DNA from: Gaiellaceae bacterium
GTDB taxonomy: Bacteria; Actinomycetota; Thermoleophilia; Gaiellales; Gaiellaceae
Reading direction: 5' to 3'
DNA: 64,000 bases
Assembly (NCBI GenBank): GCA_036257855.1
Contig: DATAET010000124.1
Span: 4,087-68,086 of the forward strand
Shown here: piece by piece, positions 43,148-51,005 of the stretch
Numbering within the stretch: the first letter of the stretch is position 1
Layout: each line of letters opens with the position of its first letter
Position numbers and translations under genes: made by a program
Notes under the pieces: model-generated
The model's input: the letters and a program-made list of their open reading frames with translations, nothing else
The model's database searches: none
What the model was told of the DNA's origin: nothing

Positions 43148-43909
43148 TCAGCGTCGCAGACGGATTGCGTTCAGGTCGTTCGCCGTGATCTCGTCGGCTC
43201 TCCGGATGAGATCCTCGATGTCGTCGTGCTCGGCGTGCAGGTAGCGGCCGGCGAGCGAGTCGGCGCGCCCCGACGCGAGGACGCGGACGAGCCTCGGCGC
43301 GAGCTCGGGTGGGGTCCACGGCGCGTCGTCTCCGAGCTCGTCGGTCATGTCCGTCCGCACGAGCCCCGGGCTGAAGAAGAACACCGGAATGCGCCCCGCG
43401 AGCTCGTTGGCGAGCGTCTCGCCGTAACGGCAGACGGCGGCCTTGCTCGTCGGGTACGCGGTGTGTCGCGACCCGGGGAGGTAGGCGGCGCCGCTGCCCG
43501 TGATCACGATGCGGCCGCGGCCGCGCTCGAGCATGCCCGGGATCACGGACCGGGACAAGAGGTGCACGCCGAGCACGTTGACCTCGACCACGTGCCACCA
43601 GGCGTCGACCGGAATCTCCCAGGTGGCGCCTTCCTGGTTGCCGATGCCCGCGTTCGCGGCGAGGAGGTCGATCGGCCCGAGCTCCTCCTCGGTGCTGCTC
43701 ACCCAGTGTTCGACGTCGCCGGCGCGGCTCACGTCTCCGACGAGCGCGAGGCCTCCGATCTCGCCGGCGACGGCCTCGACCTGGTGGGCCGTGCGCCCGG
43801 TCACGGCGACCCGCATCCCGGCCTCGGCAAGCTCGCGCGCAATCGACGCGCCGATACCGCGCCCGCCGCCGGTCACGAGAGCGACGCCGTCGAGCCGGTC
43901 AGATGGCAC
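43148..43909 (-). CDS. SDR-family oxidoreductase
   Basis: The sequence has VTGGGRGIGASIA (TGxxxGxG), NAGIG and a YxxxK motif (YPTSKAAV). The GTG 43909 start has an 11-nt overlap with the upstream synthetase. Confidence 0.8.
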   Translation of the reverse strand: MPSDRLDGVALVTGGGRGIGASIARELAEAGMRVAVTGRTAHQVEAVAGEIGGLALVGDVSRAGDVEHWVSSTEEELGPIDLLAANAGIGNQEGATWEIPVDAWWHVVEVNVLGVHLLSRSVIPGMLERGRGRIVITGSGAAYLPGSRHTAYPTSKAAVCRYGETLANELAGRIPVFFFSPGLVRTDMTDELGDDAPWTPPELAPRLVRVLASGRADSLAGRYLHAEHDDIEDLIRRADEITANDLNAIRLRR

Positions 43910-45839
43910 GGGCGATCTCCTCGAGCGCCTCCGGGTTCTCGAGCGTCGACAGATCGCCGGGATCCTGCCCGAGTGCACGGGCGCGAACCGCCCGCCTCAC
44001 GACCTTCGCGCTCCGGGTCTTGGGCAATGCCGACACGAAGATCACGCGATCGGGAGCGAATGCCTTCCCGAGCTCGTGCGACACGGCGTCGGCGACCTCT
44101 TCCGCCGACACGTCGGCGCCCGGAGCGAGGACGCAGTAGAGCCATGCGACCTCCCCCTTGACCTCGTGCGGCACGCCGATCGCGGCCGCCTCGACGACCC
44201 CTGGGTGTCCGACGGCAGCCGATTCGAGTTCCGCCGGTCCGATGCGCTTGCCGGCGATGTTGAGCGTGTCGTCCGAGCGGCCGTGGAGGAACCAGTAGCC
44301 GTCCTCGTCGACCGACGCCCAGTCCCCGTGCGTCCATACGCCCGGAAACCGACGCCAGTACGTCTCGAGGTAGCGCTCGCGGTCGCCCCAGATCCCGCGG
44401 GTCATTCCCGGCCACGCGCGCTTGCAGACGAGCTCTCCGACCTCGCCGCGGACGGAGCGGCCGTGGTCGTCGAAGACGTCCACGTCCTCGGCCAGGGCCG
44501 GGAATCCGACCGAGCACGGCTTCGTGGGTCGCAGCAGCGTGACGGACAGGAAGCACGCTCCGACCTCGGTGCCACCGGAGCAATTCACGATCGGGATGCG
44601 ACCCCTGCCGCAGACGTGCTCGTCGAGCCAGTCGTACGGGGCGCGGTTCCAAGGCTCGCCCGTCGTGACGACCGATCGGAGCGTCGAGAAGTCCTCGTCG
44701 GGCTCGCCGTGCGGGATGAGCGCGCGGACGAGCGTCGGGGAGACGCCGAGCATCGTGACGCGCTCGTCCTCGACGATCCCCCAGACGCGGTCGAACGGTC
44801 GGTCCGGGGCGCCCTCCATGAAGACGACGGTCGCGCCGCAGGCCATCGCGCCGACCACCGTCCACGGCCCCATGATCCAGCCCATGTCCGTCGCGAAAAG
44901 GACGCGGTCGCCCGCACGCAGGTCTGCCTGGTACGCGGTCTCGCGGACGATCGAGAGCAGGAATCCACCCTGGACGTGGAGCGCCCCCTTCGGGCGGCCG
45001 GTCGTCCCGGACGTGTAGGCGACAAGATACGGCGCCTCGCTGTCGACGTCGACCGGCTCGAGCGTCCCCGGTTTCCCGGCGACCGCGTCGTGCCACCAGA
45101 GGTCGCGATCGAGAGTCATCGGGCACTGCGTGCCAGCTCGCTGCCAGACCAGTACGCGCGTCACGCTCGGCGCGTCGGCGAGTGCCTCGTCGAGGATTTG
45201 CTTCATCGGGACGAGCCTCCCTCGCCGGTACGAGGCGTCCGCGCAGATCACGAGCTTAACGCCGGCGTCTGCGAGTCGGGCCGACACCGCGGGCGCTGCG
45301 AAGCCGGAGAAAATCGGCACCTGCACCGCCCCGACGTGCGCGCACGCATGCGAGGCGATCGCGGCCTCCGGCGCCATGGGCAGGAACGTGCCGACGACAT
45401 CGCCCTCGCCGATGCCGAGCTCTCGAAGCACTTCGGCGAGCCGCCGTACCTCACGCGAGAGCTCCGCCCACGTCAGCGAGCGTCGATCGCCGTCCTCGGG
45501 CGTCCACACCACCGCCTCGCCGCTCGGTGCCTTTTGCGCCCAGCGGTGGACGCACGCTTCGGCGACGTTGAGCCGCGCGCCGAGGAACCAGGTCGTCCAC
45601 TCGATCCCCTCGGAATCGTCGAGGACGTGGTCCCAAGGTCGTGCGAGCGGGACCCCGAGGTCGTTCACGACCGTGCGCCAGAACAGGTCGGGCTCCTCGA
45701 TCGACAGCCGGTGGAGGTCGTCGTAGGTCGCGCAGCCGAGCCGGCCGGCGAGCCTGGCGACGTTCGCGGACTTGAGCTGGTCGGTCGACGGTGTCCACGT
45801 GAAGTCACCCGAAGCGCTCTGGCTAGTCTCTGGGTGCAT
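43899..45839 (-). CDS. AMP-forming acyl-CoA synthetase (acetoacetyl-/acetyl-CoA synthetase-like paralogue)
   Basis: The start is ATG 45839 (MHPETSQSASGDFTWTPS...). Motifs are YTSGTTGRPKG, GGTEVG, DGYWFLHGRSDDTLNIAGKRIG and KTRSAKVVRR. Confidence 0.8.
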   Translation of the reverse strand: MHPETSQSASGDFTWTPSTDQLKSANVARLAGRLGCATYDDLHRLSIEEPDLFWRTVVNDLGVPLARPWDHVLDDSEGIEWTTWFLGARLNVAEACVHRWAQKAPSGEAVVWTPEDGDRRSLTWAELSREVRRLAEVLRELGIGEGDVVGTFLPMAPEAAIASHACAHVGAVQVPIFSGFAAPAVSARLADAGVKLVICADASYRRGRLVPMKQILDEALADAPSVTRVLVWQRAGTQCPMTLDRDLWWHDAVAGKPGTLEPVDVDSEAPYLVAYTSGTTGRPKGALHVQGGFLLSIVRETAYQADLRAGDRVLFATDMGWIMGPWTVVGAMACGATVVFMEGAPDRPFDRVWGIVEDERVTMLGVSPTLVRALIPHGEPDEDFSTLRSVVTTGEPWNRAPYDWLDEHVCGRGRIPIVNCSGGTEVGACFLSVTLLRPTKPCSVGFPALAEDVDVFDDHGRSVRGEVGELVCKRAWPGMTRGIWGDRERYLETYWRRFPGVWTHGDWASVDEDGYWFLHGRSDDTLNIAGKRIGPAELESAAVGHPGVVEAAAIGVPHEVKGEVAWLYCVLAPGADVSAEEVADAVSHELGKAFAPDRVIFVSALPKTRSAKVVRRAVRARALGQDPGDLSTLENPEALEEIARAI

Positions 45840-47271
45840 GCGGGCTCGGATCTTCGCAGAGGAGAATCGCAAGTGGCTGACGCTCGCAGCCGTGTCGTTC
45901 GGGCTCTTCATGATCATGCTCGACAACACCGTCGTGAACGTCGCGCTGCCCTCGATCCAGCGCGATCTCGGCGCCGATCTCTCGGAGCTCGAGTGGATCG
46001 TGACCGGTTATGCGCTGACGTTCGCGTCGCTCATGCTCGTCGGCGGCAAGGTCGCCGACGCGTACGGGCGACGCCTGATCTTCGTGGTCGGGATCGTCGT
46101 CTTCACCATCGCGTCGCTCATGTGCGGGCTCGCGAGCTCGTCCGAGATGCTCATCGGCTCGCGCGTCCTCCAGGGCGCGGGAGCGGCGCTCATGAACCCC
46201 GCGACCCTCTCGATCATCGCCGCCACCTTCCCGCCGCGCGAGCGTGGAACCGCCATCGGAATCTGGGCGGGGACCTCCGCTCTGGCGCTCGCCATCGGCC
46301 CGCTCGTCGGCGGGCTGATCACCGAGCACCTCGACTGGAGCTGGATCTTCTTCGTGAACGTCCCGATCGGGGTCCTCGGCATCGCGGCCTCGTTCGCGTT
46401 CATCGACGAGTCGCGCGACGAGACGCACGCGAGCCTCGACCTCCCGGGTCTCGTGACCTCCGCGGTCGGCCTGTTCGCGCTCACGTACGGCCTCATCGAG
46501 GCGAACACGTACGGGTGGACGTCGGCGCGCATCGTCGGTTCGTTCGCGCTCGCCGTGATCGCCCTCGGCGCCTTCGTCGTCATCGAGCGCCGGCGTCGCG
46601 AACCCATGCTCCCGCTCGACCTCTTCCGCAGCGGCACGTACACGGGCGCGAACCTCGTGGTGCTCCTCGTCGCGCTCGCGATGTTCGGCGTCTTCTTCTT
46701 CGTCTCGCTCTACATGCAGAACATCCTCGGCTACTCGGCCGTGCAGGCCGGCGCCGCGTTCCTGCCGATGACCATCCTCATCATCCTGGTCGCGCCGATC
46801 GCAGGCAGGGCGAGCGACCGGATCGGCTCGCGCGGGCTCATGACCGCGGGAATGTCCCTGCTCGCCCTCCAGCTCGTCCTCTTCTCGCAGCTGGGGATCG
46901 ACGCGTCGTTCTGGAATCTTCTGCCGGCGCTCCTCATCGGCGGCGTCGGCATGTCGCTCACGATGACCCCGAGCGCCGCGGCCGCGACGAGAGGCGTTCC
47001 GGTCGACAAGGCCGGCGTCGGGTCGGCGGTGCTGAACAGCGCACGCCAGGTCGGCGGCACGATGGGGGTCGCGCTGATGGGGGCTATCGTCGCCGCGGAA
47101 GCCGGCGGCGAGCGGACGCCGGAGGCGTTCATGCGCGGATTCGAACGCGCCCTCCTCGTGGCCGCCGCCATCGCGGCCCTCGGCGCCGTCGTCGCCTGGG
47201 TCCTCGTCCGCCCGCACGAGGAAGCGGGCCGCCGACCCCAACGCACGGCGGCCGAGCCCGTAGCGAAGTAA
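45838..47271 (+). CDS. MFS transporter, DHA2 (EmrB/QacA, 14-TMS) family
   Basis: The start is ATG 45838 (MRARIFAEENRKWLTLAAVSFGLFMIMLDNTVVNVALPSIQRDLG). This is the characteristic DHA2 N-terminus, and there are many TM segments. Confidence 0.85.
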   Translation: MRARIFAEENRKWLTLAAVSFGLFMIMLDNTVVNVALPSIQRDLGADLSELEWIVTGYALTFASLMLVGGKVADAYGRRLIFVVGIVVFTIASLMCGLASSSEMLIGSRVLQGAGAALMNPATLSIIAATFPPRERGTAIGIWAGTSALALAIGPLVGGLITEHLDWSWIFFVNVPIGVLGIAASFAFIDESRDETHASLDLPGLVTSAVGLFALTYGLIEANTYGWTSARIVGSFALAVIALGAFVVIERRRREPMLPLDLFRSGTYTGANLVVLLVALAMFGVFFFVSLYMQNILGYSAVQAGAAFLPMTILIILVAPIAGRASDRIGSRGLMTAGMSLLALQLVLFSQLGIDASFWNLLPALLIGGVGMSLTMTPSAAAATRGVPVDKAGVGSAVLNSARQVGGTMGVALMGAIVAAEAGGERTPEAFMRGFERALLVAAAIAALGAVVAWVLVRPHEEAGRRPQRTAAEPVAK

Positions 47272-47340
47272 CGCCGATCAGCCTCAGCGCCTGAGGGCCG
47301 AAGGCGGTTCACTCCGCCGTAGGCCAGCGGCGGCGTGTCT

Positions 47341-47428
47341 GTGCACGGCGTGAGGAAGGGGGGACATGGGGGAAACATCGTTTCCCCCATGACTGAAAAC
47401 GCCCCCGGCTGCGGCTCCGGGGGCGTTT
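47341..47428 (+). repeat. tandem-hairpin intergenic module, copy A
   Basis: The order is GTGCACGGCGT, a purine run, a perfect 12-bp hairpin CATGGGGGAAAC-ATC-GTTTCCCCCATG (47365..47391), an A-rich linker, and a perfect 12-bp hairpin AAACGCCCCCGG-N8-CCGGGGGCGTTT (47397..47428). Confidence 0.6.
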
Positions 47429-47570
47429 CCCGTTCGAGGCGACCCCTTTCCGGGGCGACGAGCCGGCGAATCGTGGCTCTGCGGCCCAGCCACGCTCGTC
47501 CTGCGCCCGCCAGCGGATCCGGCGGTGGTGCCCGCGCATCCGATCTGGCGTCCGATCGTCTGCGGTGTGG
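47393..47570 (-). ncRNA. candidate ~175-nt small RNA (unclassified)
   Basis: It is bounded by a minus-strand TTGACT-N17-TATAGT promoter and by a GC hairpin followed by GUUUUC on the minus strand. The only ORFs inside it are extremely basic and read through the terminator. It contains internal stems (CGTGGCT-N9-AGCCACG) and a GATCGGA direct repeat. Confidence 0.4.
47397..47428 (-). terminator. intrinsic terminator (bidirectional shape; U-tract on minus strand)
   Basis: The GC core GCCCCCGG/CCGGGGGC is flanked by AAA on one side and TTT(T) on the other. On the minus strand it reads ...CCGGGGGCGTTTTCAG. Confidence 0.55.
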
Positions 47571-47575
47571 GCCTG

Positions 47576-47604
47576 ACTATAGGAGCCGTGTCTGGAAAAG
47601 TCAA
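47576..47604 (-). promoter_or_regulatory. near-consensus sigma-70/SigA-type promoter
   Basis: The minus strand reads TTGACT (47604..47599), a 17-nt spacer, then TATAGT (47581..47576). A second ACTTGAC copy lies 13 nt upstream (47619..47613). Confidence 0.55.
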
Positions 47605-47700
47605 GTAGCCAGGTCAAGTGATTTGGGCTACCGTTACTTCACCCCGAAGCGGTAACCGCACATCCCCCCGGCGGGGGAGAGCACCAGGCAGCAAACCGGA

Positions 47701-49080
47701 TTGACTGAAATGGGCATGCACGAGACCGCGCTTACCCCTGCATCAGGGCCGACGGCAACTGGACCGACCGCGTCCGGCGCGGGTGCCCGTCTCGGTGAGC
47801 GCGTTCGCGCGCTTCGCGTTTCCGCCGGTCTCACGCAGACGCAGCTCGCGGGCGACCGGTTCTCGAAGGAGTACATCAGCCAGATCGAGCGCGGCAAGAC
47901 GCGACCGACCGACGCGACGATCGACTGGCTCGCCCAGCAGCTCGGCGTCGACCCCGCGTTCCTCGCCTCCGGCGTCTCGACGGAGACTCGCACGAAGCTC
48001 GAGGCGGAGCTCGAGCGCGCGGAGGCGCTGTCCGCAGCCCATCGCTACGAGGAGGCCGTCGAGGCGTTCCGCGCGGTGCGGCCGGCGGTGCAGGAGGTTG
48101 GTATCGCGACCGTCGAGGCTCGTGCCCTCGCCGGCGAGGCGTGGGCTCTCCAGGAGCTCGGTCAGGTGCGAGAGGCGCTCGACCTGTTCGTCGTGGTACG
48201 CGAGAGCGCGGAGCGTCCCGAGTTTTCCGACCTCGATCGTGCGGACGTCCTCATGCGCATCGGCGTTTGCCGCTACAAGCTCTCGAGCATCTCGACGGCG
48301 ACGGCGCTCTTCGACTCGGCGCTCGAGCTCGCGGAGCGCCCAGGTCTTCCGGCGAGTGCGCTCCGCTCGGACATCCTGCAGTGGCGCTCACGCTGTCACC
48401 GTGTCATGCGCGATTACGTCGCGGCCCGCGACGACGCCGAGCGGGCGCTCGAGCTCGCACAGGACGTCGGCGATCGCGGCGCCATCGCACGCGCGTACAC
48501 GCAGGCGTCGCTCATCGCGCAGAGGCAGGGCCACTACGTTCTGTCCCGCAGCTACGCACAGCGGGCGAAGGAGCTGTGTCAGCAGTTGAACGACGAGCGG
48601 AGCGTCGGACGACTCCTGCTCATGCTGGGCGGCCTCACGCTCCTCCTGGGAGACGAGGAGCATGCGGTCGAGCACCTGAAGGCGTCCTATTCGAGGGCGC
48701 TCGATTCCGATTCCCCCGCGGACGCCGCGCAGGCGCTCGAGGGGATCGCCCGGGTTCATCTGAACCGTGGCGAATACGACCAGGCGGACGATCTGGCGCG
48801 GAAGGCGCTCGATCTGCTGCAGGGTCGGGAGGACTACCTCCACGAGGTCTGTCCGTCGCAGCTCGTACTGGGACGAGCGTTGCTCGAGCGCGGACGACTG
48901 GAAGAGGCGGAAGTGTGTTTCCGGGCAGCTGACGCTGCTGCTGAGCAGATGGCGTCGATCAGCCACCGGACGGAGGCGTGGGTCGCTCTCGGGGATCTCG
49001 CGGCGCGTCGAGGTGACGACCGCGGGGCCGCACGTCTCTATCGGAACGCCGCAGAGGCGCTCCAGGAAATCCGCTTCTAG
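47701..49080 (+). CDS. XRE-family HTH transcriptional regulator with C-terminal TPR-like repeat domain
   Basis: The Cro/C1 HTH reads LGERVRALRVSAGLTQTQLAGDRFSKEYISQIERGKTRPTDATIDWLAQQLGV. It is followed by about 9 helical-hairpin repeats (e.g. AHRYEEAVEAFRAV, GEYDQADDLARKALDLL, GRLEEAEVCFRAA). The start is uncertain: TTG 47701, ATG 47710 or ATG 47716. Confidence 0.8.
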   Translation: MTEMGMHETALTPASGPTATGPTASGAGARLGERVRALRVSAGLTQTQLAGDRFSKEYISQIERGKTRPTDATIDWLAQQLGVDPAFLASGVSTETRTKLEAELERAEALSAAHRYEEAVEAFRAVRPAVQEVGIATVEARALAGEAWALQELGQVREALDLFVVVRESAERPEFSDLDRADVLMRIGVCRYKLSSISTATALFDSALELAERPGLPASALRSDILQWRSRCHRVMRDYVAARDDAERALELAQDVGDRGAIARAYTQASLIAQRQGHYVLSRSYAQRAKELCQQLNDERSVGRLLLMLGGLTLLLGDEEHAVEHLKASYSRALDSDSPADAAQALEGIARVHLNRGEYDQADDLARKALDLLQGREDYLHEVCPSQLVLGRALLERGRLEEAEVCFRAADAAAEQMASISHRTEAWVALGDLAARRGDDRGAARLYRNAAEALQEIRF

Positions 49081-49095
49081 AGAGAGGAGGTCGCT

Positions 49096-49197
49096 ATGAA
49101 GCCGAGGCTGCTTCTCCTGCTCGTCAACCTCGCGTTGCTGGCCGCGTGGCTCGGGCAATGCGGTGGTGGACGCCACTCCTGGCCCGACGGGCTCTAG
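49096..49197 (+). CDS. 33-codon ORF encoding a signal-peptide-bearing small peptide (candidate)
   Basis: GGAGG (49086..49090) lies 5 nt upstream of ATG 49096. The peptide is MKPRLLLLLVNLALLAAWLGQCGGGRHSWPDGL*, ending at TAG 49195-49197. It is below the track's 60-aa cutoff and starts 16 nt after the regulator stop. Confidence 0.4.
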   Translation: MKPRLLLLLVNLALLAAWLGQCGGGRHSWPDGL

Positions 49198-49224
49198 GAA
49201 TCCCCGGGCTACACTCGGGCGCGT

Positions 49225-50142
49225 ATGCGCCCCGCTGCGGCACTGACCGTGCTGTCGTGCCTGCTCCTCGTCGGCTGCGGCGGGTCTGGCGGGAACGAGG
49301 CGACCACTCCCCCCGGAGGGGGTGAGACGCTGGAGCAACTCTGGCGTGCGCCCGGTGACGACGTCGCCGTGGTCCCCGGCACCGAGAGCTACGAGCCTGG
49401 GAGCGTGCGCGTGTCCTTCCTCGTCGTCGATGCCGACGGTCGGCCCGTCACGCTTCCGACGGCTCGCCTATGGGTCTCCGACGCGCTCGATCGAGCCCCC
49501 TTCCTCGAGACGGAGGCGAAGGTCGAGCGCATCGGCGTGCCCGGAGGCGCAGAGGCCGACGCGACGCATTTCTACGTCGCGAAGTTCCGCCTCCCCCGAC
49601 CCGGAAAGTACTGGCTCCTCGCCGAGCCCGAGGGAGGTTCGACCAAGGTGCAGGCCCTTGGCAACGTCGTGGTCGTGAAGCACGACCCGCCGCCGGACGT
49701 CGGCGACCCGGCACCTCCATCCGCCACGCCGACGCTCGCGTCCACGCACGGTGATCTGTCTGCGCTCACGACCCGCACGCCGCCGGACAAGACGCTGCTC
49801 CGTTACTCGGTCGCCGGCTCGCTCCGGGCGCAGGTGCCGTTCGTCGTGACTTTCGCGACCCCGAAGTTCTGCACGAGTCGGACTTGCGGGCCTATGGTCG
49901 ACGTCCTCGAGGAGGTCTCGAAGCGGTTCGAAGGCGAACGGGTCCGCTTCATCCACGTGGAGGTGTACGAGGGGAACGACCCGGCGAACGGCCTCAACCG
50001 CTGGATGCAGGAGTGGCGGCTGCCGACCGAGCCGTGGACCTTCCTCGTGGACGCGAGAGGCGTAATCGCCACTCGGCTCGAGGGCAGCGTCTCGGTCGAG
50101 GAACTCGAGACCGCGGTCAGAGACATGCTCGGCGCAGGCTGA
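49225..50142 (+). CDS. lipoprotein with C-terminal thioredoxin-like (TlpA/redoxin-type) domain
   Basis: The lipobox is LLLVGCGG. The C-terminal part is VPFVVTFATPKFCTSRTCGPMVDVLEEV...WTFLVDARGVI (thioredoxin fold, Cx4C). The N-terminal ~170 aa are beta-rich. A TACACT box lies 9 nt upstream of the ATG. Confidence 0.7.
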   Translation: MRPAAALTVLSCLLLVGCGGSGGNEATTPPGGGETLEQLWRAPGDDVAVVPGTESYEPGSVRVSFLVVDADGRPVTLPTARLWVSDALDRAPFLETEAKVERIGVPGGAEADATHFYVAKFRLPRPGKYWLLAEPEGGSTKVQALGNVVVVKHDPPPDVGDPAPPSATPTLASTHGDLSALTTRTPPDKTLLRYSVAGSLRAQVPFVVTFATPKFCTSRTCGPMVDVLEEVSKRFEGERVRFIHVEVYEGNDPANGLNRWMQEWRLPTEPWTFLVDARGVIATRLEGSVSVEELETAVRDMLGAG

Positions 50143-50830: not shown

Positions 50831-50915
50831 GAGTATCTCTAAGAAGGCTGAGCATTCGCGTGGGTCGAGGGCCGAAGGGCGATTCATTCGCCCGCAGGCC
50901 CACGATCGTCAACGC

Positions 50916-51005
50916 GTGCACGGCGTTAGGGAAAGGGGGCAGGTGGGGGAAGACCGTAGGTTTGCCCCCACCAAAAGAGCGGCCGCCGAGGGGGCGGCGG
51001 CCGCT
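50916..51005 (+). repeat. tandem-hairpin intergenic module, copy B
   Basis: It shares the 11-mer GTGCACGGCGT with copy A, followed by TAGGGAAAGGGGGCAG. Next come the hairpin GGTGGGGG-N15-CCCCCACC (50942..50972), AAAAG, and the hairpin AGCGGCCGCCG-AGGGGG-CGGCGGCCGCT (50978..51005). The minus strand then reads CTTTTGG. Confidence 0.6.

Follow-up and report, generated by a model that had tools for sequence, protein, structure and literature searches.

The locus

The stretch of Gaiellaceae DNA analysed here (64,000 nucleotides (nt) of contig DATAET010000124.1, assembly GCA_036257855.1; hereafter the window) contains a 430-bp spacer between two plus-strand genes, within which a small RNA (sRNA) gene appears to lie on the minus strand. 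On one side, a gene for a major facilitator superfamily (MFS) transporter converges on the sRNA; on the other, the gene of a regulator with an XRE-type helix-turn-helix (HTH) and tetratricopeptide repeats (TPR) diverges from it. The regulator gene is followed by a small open reading frame (ORF) and by a lipoprotein gene, and repeats resembling operator half-sites lie between the sRNA and the regulator (Table 1). An original prediction, made from the letters of the window, had proposed a discrete, structured and non-coding RNA gene on the minus strand. Conservation of the RNA in about 180 loci from Gaiellales and Thermoleophilia, all with promoter and terminator, and covariation of its stems bear this out. 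All evidence presented here is comparative.

Table 1. Positions of the features of the sRNA-regulator locus, numbered as in the window. aa, amino acids; CM, covariance model; SD, Shine-Dalgarno sequence; SL, stem-loop.
Feature	Position	Strand	Remarks
MFS transporter gene	45772..47271	plus	converges on the sRNA gene
sRNA gene	47394..47575	minus	CM match; homologues in all related loci
sRNA promoter, -35 box TTGACT	47604..47599	minus	embedded in repeat copy C
sRNA promoter, -10 box TATAGT	47581..47576	minus	TAnnnT kept in relatives
SL1, loop GGACGCCA	47536..47563	minus	ACGCCAG at 47551..47545; stem covaries (AU/GC/UA/CG), loop near-invariant
SL2, long irregular hairpin	47435..47535	minus	helices 6-15 covary
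SL2 apical stem-loop CGUGGCU-GGGCCGCAG-AGCCACG	47494..47472	minus	best-conserved helix; loop motif GCCGCAG at 47485..47479
SL3, terminator hairpin AAACGCCCCCGG-AGCCGCAG-CCGGGGGCGUUU	47428..47397	minus	read from the sequence
SL3 loop AGCCGCAG, motif GCCGCAG	47415..47409	minus	second invariant copy
Tandem repeat ACTTGAC-N6-ACTTGAC	47600..47619	minus	copy C at 47606..47600, copy B at 47619..47613
Probable -10 box of the regulator gene, TACCGT (TAnnnT type)	47629..47634	plus	position kept, inner bases vary
Inverted half-site GTGAAGT (GTCAAGT in most relatives)	47636..47642	minus	palindrome with copy B
Half-site-like element TTGACTGA	47701..47708	plus	just 5' of the regulator start codon
XRE-HTH/TPR regulator gene, candidate peptide receptor	47716..49080	plus	start ATG 47716 or 47710; Pfam, AlphaFold2 model
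Small ORF, candidate propeptide, 33 aa: MKPRLLLLLVNLALLAAWLGQCGGGRHSWPDGL	49096..49197	plus	SD GGAGG at 49086..49090
Lipoprotein gene, weak thioredoxin-like C-terminal domain	49225..50142	plus	lipobox LLVGC; usually follows the small ORF

The small RNA gene

The two promoter boxes of the sRNA are separated by 17 nt and form the sole sigma-70-like match in 45000..50000 (one found, 0.2 expected from shuffles), in line with the earlier description of a near-consensus minus-strand promoter that is rare in such DNA. The GC hairpin that had been put forward as a terminator about 175 nt downstream is also present; it lies around 150 nt past the promoter and is directly followed by UUUU and then C-A. 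The terminator scan did not list this hairpin, because it has only four U while the scan wanted five. The transcript would be about 175 nt long, probably starting near 47569 (±3) and ending in the U-tract at 47396-47394.

The conserved block could in principle be a small protein gene or a purely DNA-level element, and ORFs of 102-106 aa do cross the interval on both strands. However, these long ORFs have no Pfam match and no codon periodicity: the nucleotide diversity in the sRNA lacks a 3-nt phase (13.7/12.6/13.8), 160 of its 167 indel events involve 1 or 2 nt, and relatives have a shortened version of the long basic ORF over the interval. A conserved translated ORF was not found in the interval, which agrees with the original view that it holds no credible one. 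The compensatory and G-U changes described below follow the helices and would not be expected of a DNA site either, making both versions of this explanation extremely improbable. Comparison of the sequences thus gives good support to the interpretation of 47394..47575 as a discrete, structured, non-coding RNA gene on the minus strand.

Comparison with Rfam 15 at the gathering threshold gave no matches in the whole 64-kb window. At E≤10, a search of 47200..47800 gave nothing usable: 6S RNA was not matched, and the best hit was to 6C RNA, with 17.4 bits against a threshold of 47. The window contains no tRNA or tmRNA genes, and literature searches found no report of the present RNA family. The RNA is a previously undescribed family, absent from Rfam. 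A phage or mobile origin was considered and rejected; a search of viral contigs with the RNA motif gave no matches, and the module is single-copy, syntenic and chromosomal.

Fold and covariation

The RNA folds into three hairpins, SL1, SL2 and the terminator SL3. Covariation was first assessed in a sequence-only MAFFT alignment, with the minimum-free-energy fold of one member as the structure. In this alignment 86.2% of the cells are paired, compared to 39-48% when the partners are slid by 1-3 columns, and 31 pairs have changed on both sides, compared to 14-18 when slid; the observed values were reached in none of 500 shuffles. In a CM-guided alignment of 73 RNAs, 86.5% of the cells are paired (38-44% when slid) and 51 of the 61 pairs show compensatory changes; this second alignment is biased towards the structure, whereas the sequence-only alignment is not. 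Covariation across relatives, which had been named as a check on the original prediction, is therefore strong in all three hairpins.

Among the 73 members, the apical stem of SL2 occurs as GUGGCU/AGCCAC, GUGACU/AGUCAC and UUGGCU/AGCCAA, and the terminator stem as CCCCCGG/CCGGGGG, UCCCCGG/CCGGGGA and CCUCCGG/CCGGAGG; in the SL3 stem, compensatory changes are present at 9 of the 11 pairs. G-U pairs are frequent, with, for example, 14 in the apical helix of SL2 and 33 at the terminator base; they suit the minus strand alone, since each would become an A-C mismatch if the opposite strand were transcribed.

The loops behave differently from the stems. All 73 members carry GCCGCAG in the loops of both SL2 and SL3, nearly all have ACGCCAG in the SL1 loop, and each of 36 more distant members contains at least two copies of GCCGCAG. 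Such fixed loops on covarying stems point to sequence-specific recognition, putatively by a complementary RNA or by a protein.

Three elements of the original prediction can be placed on this fold. The stem CGTGGCT-N9-AGCCACG proved to be the apical helix of SL2. The local CCGCC-N9-GGCGG stem is possible in the minimum-free-energy fold of the window but shows little covariation, and a long-range covarying helix, in which GGCGGG pairs with CUCGUC instead, is preferred. What had been taken for a direct repeat, GATCGGA-N5-GATCGGA, is really the two arms of SL1, CGAUC and GAUCG, on either side of its loop.

In the most divergent clades (L201, L203, L211, L215, L196, L219; L230, L234, L236, L238, L253, L264), the RNAs are about 200-212 nt long, owing to insertions in SL1 and SL2.

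Distribution of the RNA

Close orthologues of the regulator are found in metagenome-assembled genomes of Gaiellaceae, Gaiellales and Thermoleophilia. In 35 regulator-anchored loci the spacer upstream of the regulator is 81-93% identical at the nucleotide level; conservation is near-perfect over the block bounded by AAATCACTTGAC and the terminator end, promoter included, and decays on both flanks. The conservation of the spacer among relatives, also foreseen as a check, is thus that of a near-invariant block. An exact search with a 21-nt motif of the RNA matched 111 genome stretches, with a single match in each.

A CM built on 53 non-redundant sequences has a single match in the 64-kb window, with 180.7 bits. 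With this model, all 36 loci that carry more distant orthologues of the regulator (59-66% identical; among the best 80 of 506 relatives in a regulator profile scan, all of which are at least 59% identical) yield the RNA. The CM also recovers the RNA in at least 37 further loci reached via the operator pattern described below, where the RNA directly follows the pattern. The scan with this pattern covered all genomes and returned mostly chance matches in unrelated phyla, so its figures are those among the matches listed; with chance matches dominating, no further regulon members could be discerned among the matches listed.

Operator-like repeats and the link to the regulator

The 7-mer repeat GTCAAGT/ACTTGAC noted in the original prediction is exact in copies B and C, which are the two exact ACTTGAC copies of the 64-kb window; they are 13 bp apart and the proximal one contains the -35 box. 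In all of 39 diverse loci, neither the sequence nor the spacing of the tandem varies, while the surrounding bases differ. The inverted half-site is located around 17 bp beyond the tandem, towards the regulator gene. In locus L045, a perfect GTCAAGT-N4-ACTTGAC (7-4-7) palindrome, GTCAAGTcgatACTTGAC, occupies the position of TTGACTGA. A plus-strand promoter candidate facing the regulator had also been proposed; its TACCGT box is present and the TAnnnT pattern is kept in relatives. Two back-to-back promoters in one cluster of half-sites is the classic layout of an autoregulated HTH protein and its divergent gene, and it is presumably the regulator that binds here. The invariance of the ACTTGAC repeats fits the earlier suggestion of back-to-back promoters at an operator-like place.

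The association of the RNA with the XRE/TPR regulator was part of the original prediction, and the two genes are adjacent and divergent in every locus with enough flanking sequence, down to a regulator identity of 44-54%. In the operator-derived loci (at least 37) the regulator is 44-63% identical, divergent and, in nearly all of them, 200-290 bp from the RNA. Adjacency alone could be due to inheritance, because general synteny is common in the closer genomes, where the order is acetyl-CoA synthetase (ACS) - MFS - RNA - regulator - small ORF - lipoprotein - SDR - AIR-synthase-like. The genes beyond the RNA vary, and include convergent MFS, ACS-like, PLD, GT2 (glycosyltransferase 2), AzlD, TetR and GNAT genes. 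In divergent clades, the far-side genes are unrelated and some are on the opposite strand, while the order of RNA, spacer of about 200 bp and regulator is unchanged. Because the far side changes while this arrangement persists, a link between the RNA and the regulator beyond general synteny appears well supported.

The same variation bears on the possibility that the RNA is a cis-acting leader, i.e. a riboswitch or attenuator, ancestrally of an ACS-like gene. In L078, L082, L094 and other loci an ACS-like gene is directly after the RNA on the same strand, and in the window the ACS gene is also on this strand, 1.5 kb further. However, the convergent MFS gene intervenes in the window and in most loci, the terminator is always present and its loop is invariant in sequence, and the divergent clades have unrelated or opposite-strand genes downstream. 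Because the downstream genes vary between loci, we discard a leader role as highly improbable.

A constitutive housekeeping RNA, such as part of a ribonucleoprotein or a 6S/Ms1-like RNA that binds RNA polymerase, would have incidental synteny with the regulator and escape its control, and the repeats would be UP-like or -35 promoter elements. The single copy per genome, the near-consensus promoter and the extreme sequence conservation, which exceeds that of the neighbouring coding genes, all agree with such a role, as does the fact that TTGAC is the -35 consensus. On the other hand, Rfam gives no match, 6S included, even at E≤10, and the three-hairpin fold is unlike the 6S rod. Nor would a housekeeping role account for an adjacent and divergent regulator that persists while the other side changes, and the inverted half-sites near the regulator start and the L045 palindrome are unexplained by a promoter element. 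We therefore consider a housekeeping RNA unlikely.

The regulator

The regulator is 454-456 aa long and has Pfam matches to HTH_31/HTH_3 and TPR_12/TPR_2/TPR_MalT. Its AlphaFold2 model, with a predicted local distance difference test (pLDDT) score of 88.8, consists of the HTH followed by about nine helix pairs. The nearest solved folds are generic peptide-binding TPR proteins (LGN/Pins and consensus TPR), with PlcR:PapR7:DNA at rank 44 and phage Rap at rank 49. Among PDB chains, ComR and PlcR match the regulator via the HTH only, and RapJ is matched at an E-value of 3e-4. Searches of NCBIfam and PADLOC with the regulator gave sub-threshold generic matches only. Homology to the known RRNPP receptors, to defence systems or to a named NCBIfam family was therefore rejected, all matches being generic or sub-threshold.

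The start of the regulator is ambiguous, with TTG 47701, ATG 47710 and ATG 47716 (plus strand) as candidates. The last is favoured because orthologues begin MHET... An SD-like sequence is absent before any of the three, and the conserved half-site TTGACTGA occupies the place of the SD. A hairpin, CAUCCCCCC-GGC-GGGGGAGA, is located at 47661..47680 (plus strand), in the presumed 5' untranslated region of the regulator mRNA. Its C5/G5 arms are kept in relatives and its loops vary; the 3' arm is SD-like and lies about 20-30 nt 5' of the start codon. This hairpin might act on the regulator at the level of translation or through attenuation.

The small ORF

The small ORF has a strong SD and begins 16 nt past the stop codon of the regulator, behind GAGAGGAGG, and its existing annotation is "hypothetical protein". 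A simple search found a counterpart in 182 of 195 loci, and more divergent versions are present in the operator-derived loci. Summed over codon positions 1, 2 and 3, diversity amounts to 5.0/2.5/9.8, and where Ala is invariant, each of its four codons occurs. By these measures, the small ORF is clearly coding and under selection at the protein level.

The products are 29-47 aa long in relatives. In all of these products, Lys or Arg at the N-terminus gives way to 15-17 hydrophobic residues; a variable linker (4-15 residues) separates this stretch from the extreme C-terminus, which is conserved. The C-terminal sequences fall into classes by clade, SWPDG[NSHLTY], SWSDGH[YFLMW], TWSDGH, TFSDGD, SWWDG[PGR], G[LF]WDGPx and MSDGGx, which share the core [W/F]-x-[D/E]-G. 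In the most divergent clades, the small ORFs are differently built (for example, MRKKLILLIALTLLIVLALQGIAELPELNESWWDGG and a product ending in GLWDGPI); these could be natural "pherotype" swaps.

The signature used for RRNPP systems has five criteria, among them a receptor of 250-500 aa with HTH and TPR, an adjacent ORF of 10-100 aa and an export-like N-terminus (PMC10075063). Regulator and small ORF fall within both length ranges, the receptor has the HTH and TPR domains, and the module also agrees with the signature in adjacency and ribosome-binding site. The basic and hydrophobic N-terminus of the small-ORF product has the shape of a PptAB-type export signal and may serve as one, with a membrane anchor an equal possibility. 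Because the sequence and profile searches found no specific subfamily, the module is placed outside the known ones: it is RRNPP-like in logic and architecture, but not a member of a known subfamily.

Instead of a propeptide, the small ORF might encode a small membrane protein serving as a tether or modulator of the TPR regulator (a membrane-anchored anti-regulator or stress sensor), in which case the module would sense the state of the envelope or redox conditions and not cell density. The hydrophobic segment of 15-17 residues suffices for a transmembrane helix and has basic residues on both sides, a gene for a thioredoxin-like lipoprotein adjoins, and the regulator lacks homology to the RRNPP receptors known so far. 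However, a conserved extreme C-terminus combined with a variable linker and clade variants is the pattern of pheromone propeptides, and the layout and sizes fit the RRNPP signature. A membrane modulator is, in our estimation, a serious alternative, although not the favoured one.

Neighbouring genes and search for targets

The ACS-like gene (minus strand) and the MFS gene (plus strand), both within 43899..47271, are neighbours of the RNA in most close relatives; L078, L082 and L094, the loci mentioned above in which the ACS-like gene directly follows the RNA, lack the MFS gene. The lipoprotein gene is an uncertain member of the module. A conserved GGCTACACT, with TACACT or TAGACT as -10 box, precedes its ATG by 9 nt (49205..49250, plus strand); a -10 box so close to the ATG suggests that the lipoprotein mRNA is leaderless or nearly so.

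Two copies of an intergenic element of about 85 nt, 74% identical to each other, lie in the window at 47293..47374 and 50867..50951. One is located just past the sRNA terminator and the other between the SDR and AIR-synthase-like genes, and both are at the same places in many Gaiellaceae loci. Its hairpin shows compensatory changes (CGGCGG-AGUGAA-CCGCC versus CGGGCGA-AUGAA-UCGCCC, minus strand), and the first copy is followed by a further hairpin, GGGGGAAAC...GUUUCCCCC, at 47365..47390. The element, for which Rfam has no matching family, may represent either a REP-like repeat or another small structured RNA.

The complement of the GCCGCAG loops, CTGCGGC, recurs solely at codons 4-6 of the lipoprotein gene (GCUGCGGC), in 74 of 114 unique loci. 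At this site the preceding Pro codon varies freely, and the change of GCU to GUU would keep a G-U pair. For the SL1 loop, no conserved complementary site was found.

Comparison with known systems

Of the systems already described, the RRNPP quorum-sensing pairs PlcR-PapR and NprR-NprX from the Bacillus cereus group share with the present module a cytoplasmic regulator of 250-500 aa in which an XRE-type HTH is N-terminal and the TPR array C-terminal. They also share a small ORF directly 3' on the same strand, with a basic and hydrophobic N-terminus and a C-terminus that differs by clade ("pherotypes"), and repeated or palindromic DNA boxes in the target promoter. However, their sequence relation to the present regulator is that of generic HTH and TPR domains, and the PlcR fold match comes only at rank 44. 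The present host belongs to an actinobacterial order, not to Bacillota, and a non-coding RNA takes the place of a protein gene as the adjacent target.

ComRS and Rgg-SHP of streptococci have short propeptides (about 17-35 aa) without a canonical Sec cleavage site, with N-terminal Lys or Arg and a hydrophobic stretch. Their active part is C-terminal and often contains Trp, and comS is located downstream of comR. In its shape, the short, Trp-containing product of the present small ORF is reminiscent of ComS and SHP. On the other hand, the peptide-binding domain of Rgg and ComR is a family apart (TIGR01716), which is not matched in the present regulator, and the present output is an sRNA.

In the enterococcal PrgX/prgQ/Anti-Q (pCF10) and TraA/mD (pAD1) systems, a peptide-responsive HTH regulator, several operators between opposed promoters of a compact intergenic region and an sRNA are all part of the circuit. 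Anti-Q, however, is a counter-transcript overlapping prgQ, whereas the present transcripts would diverge without overlap from starts separated by about 70 bp; the enterococcal systems are plasmid-borne, whereas the present module is chromosomal and vertically inherited.

The arbitrium system of SPbeta-like phages, AimR-AimP-aimX, also has an HTH and TPR receptor, a downstream propeptide gene and an adjacent short output with a receptor site in its promoter. It differs in that aimX is downstream of aimP, while the present RNA is non-coding, upstream and divergent, and in being phage-borne, while the present module is chromosomal and its RNA was without matches in the viral contigs. The peptide-signalling analogy of the original prediction thus stands as far as a propeptide-like small ORF directly 3' of the regulator is concerned, but aimX is a poor analogue, being phage-borne and AimX now being described as a small protein (PMC10769878; bioRxiv 10.1101/2025.11.23.689978).

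The RNA itself can be compared with 6C RNA of Actinobacteria and with the CsrB/RsmZ sponges, whose hairpins likewise repeat one short motif from loop to loop; the resemblance goes no further than this principle. In 6C RNA the loops are C-rich and pair with targets, while the GGA loops of CsrB/RsmZ bind CsrA. The present RNA has GCCGCAG and ACGCCAG loops, about 175 nt and a long central hairpin, and scores far below the 6C threshold, as given above.

Proposed mechanism

The module, i.e. the sRNA and the regulator transcribed away from each other from the ACTTGAC repeats and the small ORF behind the regulator, is vertically inherited in Gaiellales. Marginally, we favour a circuit in which a peptide-responsive regulator would control the sRNA and the sRNA would act in trans via its invariant loops. 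The sRNA, of about 175 nt, would be made from its strong sigma-70-type promoter and end at the intrinsic terminator. The TPR regulator would sit on the ACTTGAC half-sites, both at the sRNA -35 box and in its own promoter region, and set the transcription of the sRNA and of itself. The C-terminal part of the small-ORF product, with its [W/F]-x-[D/E]-G core, would be released and sensed by the TPR domain, switching the binding of the regulator. The sRNA would be the direct output, with its loops engaging RNAs containing CUGCGGC by kissing or seed pairing over 7 nt; equally, the loops could titrate an RNA-binding protein, following a CsrB-like logic. Peptide-modulated repression of the sRNA promoter, as by PrgX or Rgg3, would seem somewhat more likely than activation, tentatively, because the promoter is near-consensus and the site overlaps its -35 box. 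We infer from the sequences the transcript, the binding of the repeats, the export and sensing of the peptide, the direction of regulation and the targets.

Several points weigh against this proposal. A single order, in which synteny is broadly conserved, supplies most of the loci; the locus counts are therefore not independent events and overstate the support. Because TTGAC is also the -35 consensus, part of the invariance of ACTTGAC may reflect RNA polymerase and not the regulator. The regulator has no specific affinity, in sequence or fold, to RRNPP receptors: phmmer and profile searches against PDB chains gave generic TPR matches only and no RRNPP subfamily. It is equally possible that the hydrophobic stretch of the small-ORF product is a membrane anchor and not an export signal. 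Finally, the search for sRNA targets yielded no convincing conserved one. The complement at lipoprotein codons 4-6 disappears in divergent clades and can result from the codons for Ala-Ala or for the Gly-Cys-Gly of the lipobox, so it is a lead and not a finding.

A wider form of the proposed circuit is possible, and we hold it with reserve: in Gaiellales, and perhaps more widely in Thermoleophilia, an order-wide, vertically inherited pheromone circuit with RRNPP logic would have evolved outside Bacillota, with the new non-coding RNA as its dedicated and possibly sole direct output and the three loops serving as a multivalent decoy or seed. Bolder still, the loops may mimic the 5' strand of helix 45 of 16S rRNA and pair with its 3' strand (UGCGGCU/CUGCGGCU), which is located beside the anti-Shine-Dalgarno sequence and which we take to be complementary to the sRNA loops.

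Significance

To our knowledge, nothing is known of sRNA biology in this lineage, and we understand that chaperones of the Hfq/ProQ type are generally lacking in the phylum. The RNA, with its unusually clear anatomy of covarying stems and invariant loops, offers a way into the sRNA biology of the Gaiellales lineage and a directly testable circuit output. The module is compact, at about 2.2 kb, making heterologous reconstitution possible.

Peptide quorum sensing of the RRNPP type, by cytoplasmic TPR receptors, is treated as a trait of Firmicutes. The largest RRNPP survey covered Firmicutes and viruses only and describes small molecules as the typical signals of Actinomycetota (PMC10075063), and our literature searches found no report of an RRNPP-like system for Actinomycetota or Gaiella. 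What is new here is the RNA family, together with an RRNPP-like module in a new phylum that has a non-coding RNA as its adjacent output. If the proposed circuit is correct, a receptor-propeptide pair with diversifying "pherotypes" would extend RRNPP logic to another phylum, and this logic would reach Gaiellales, abundant soil bacteria that have barely been cultured.

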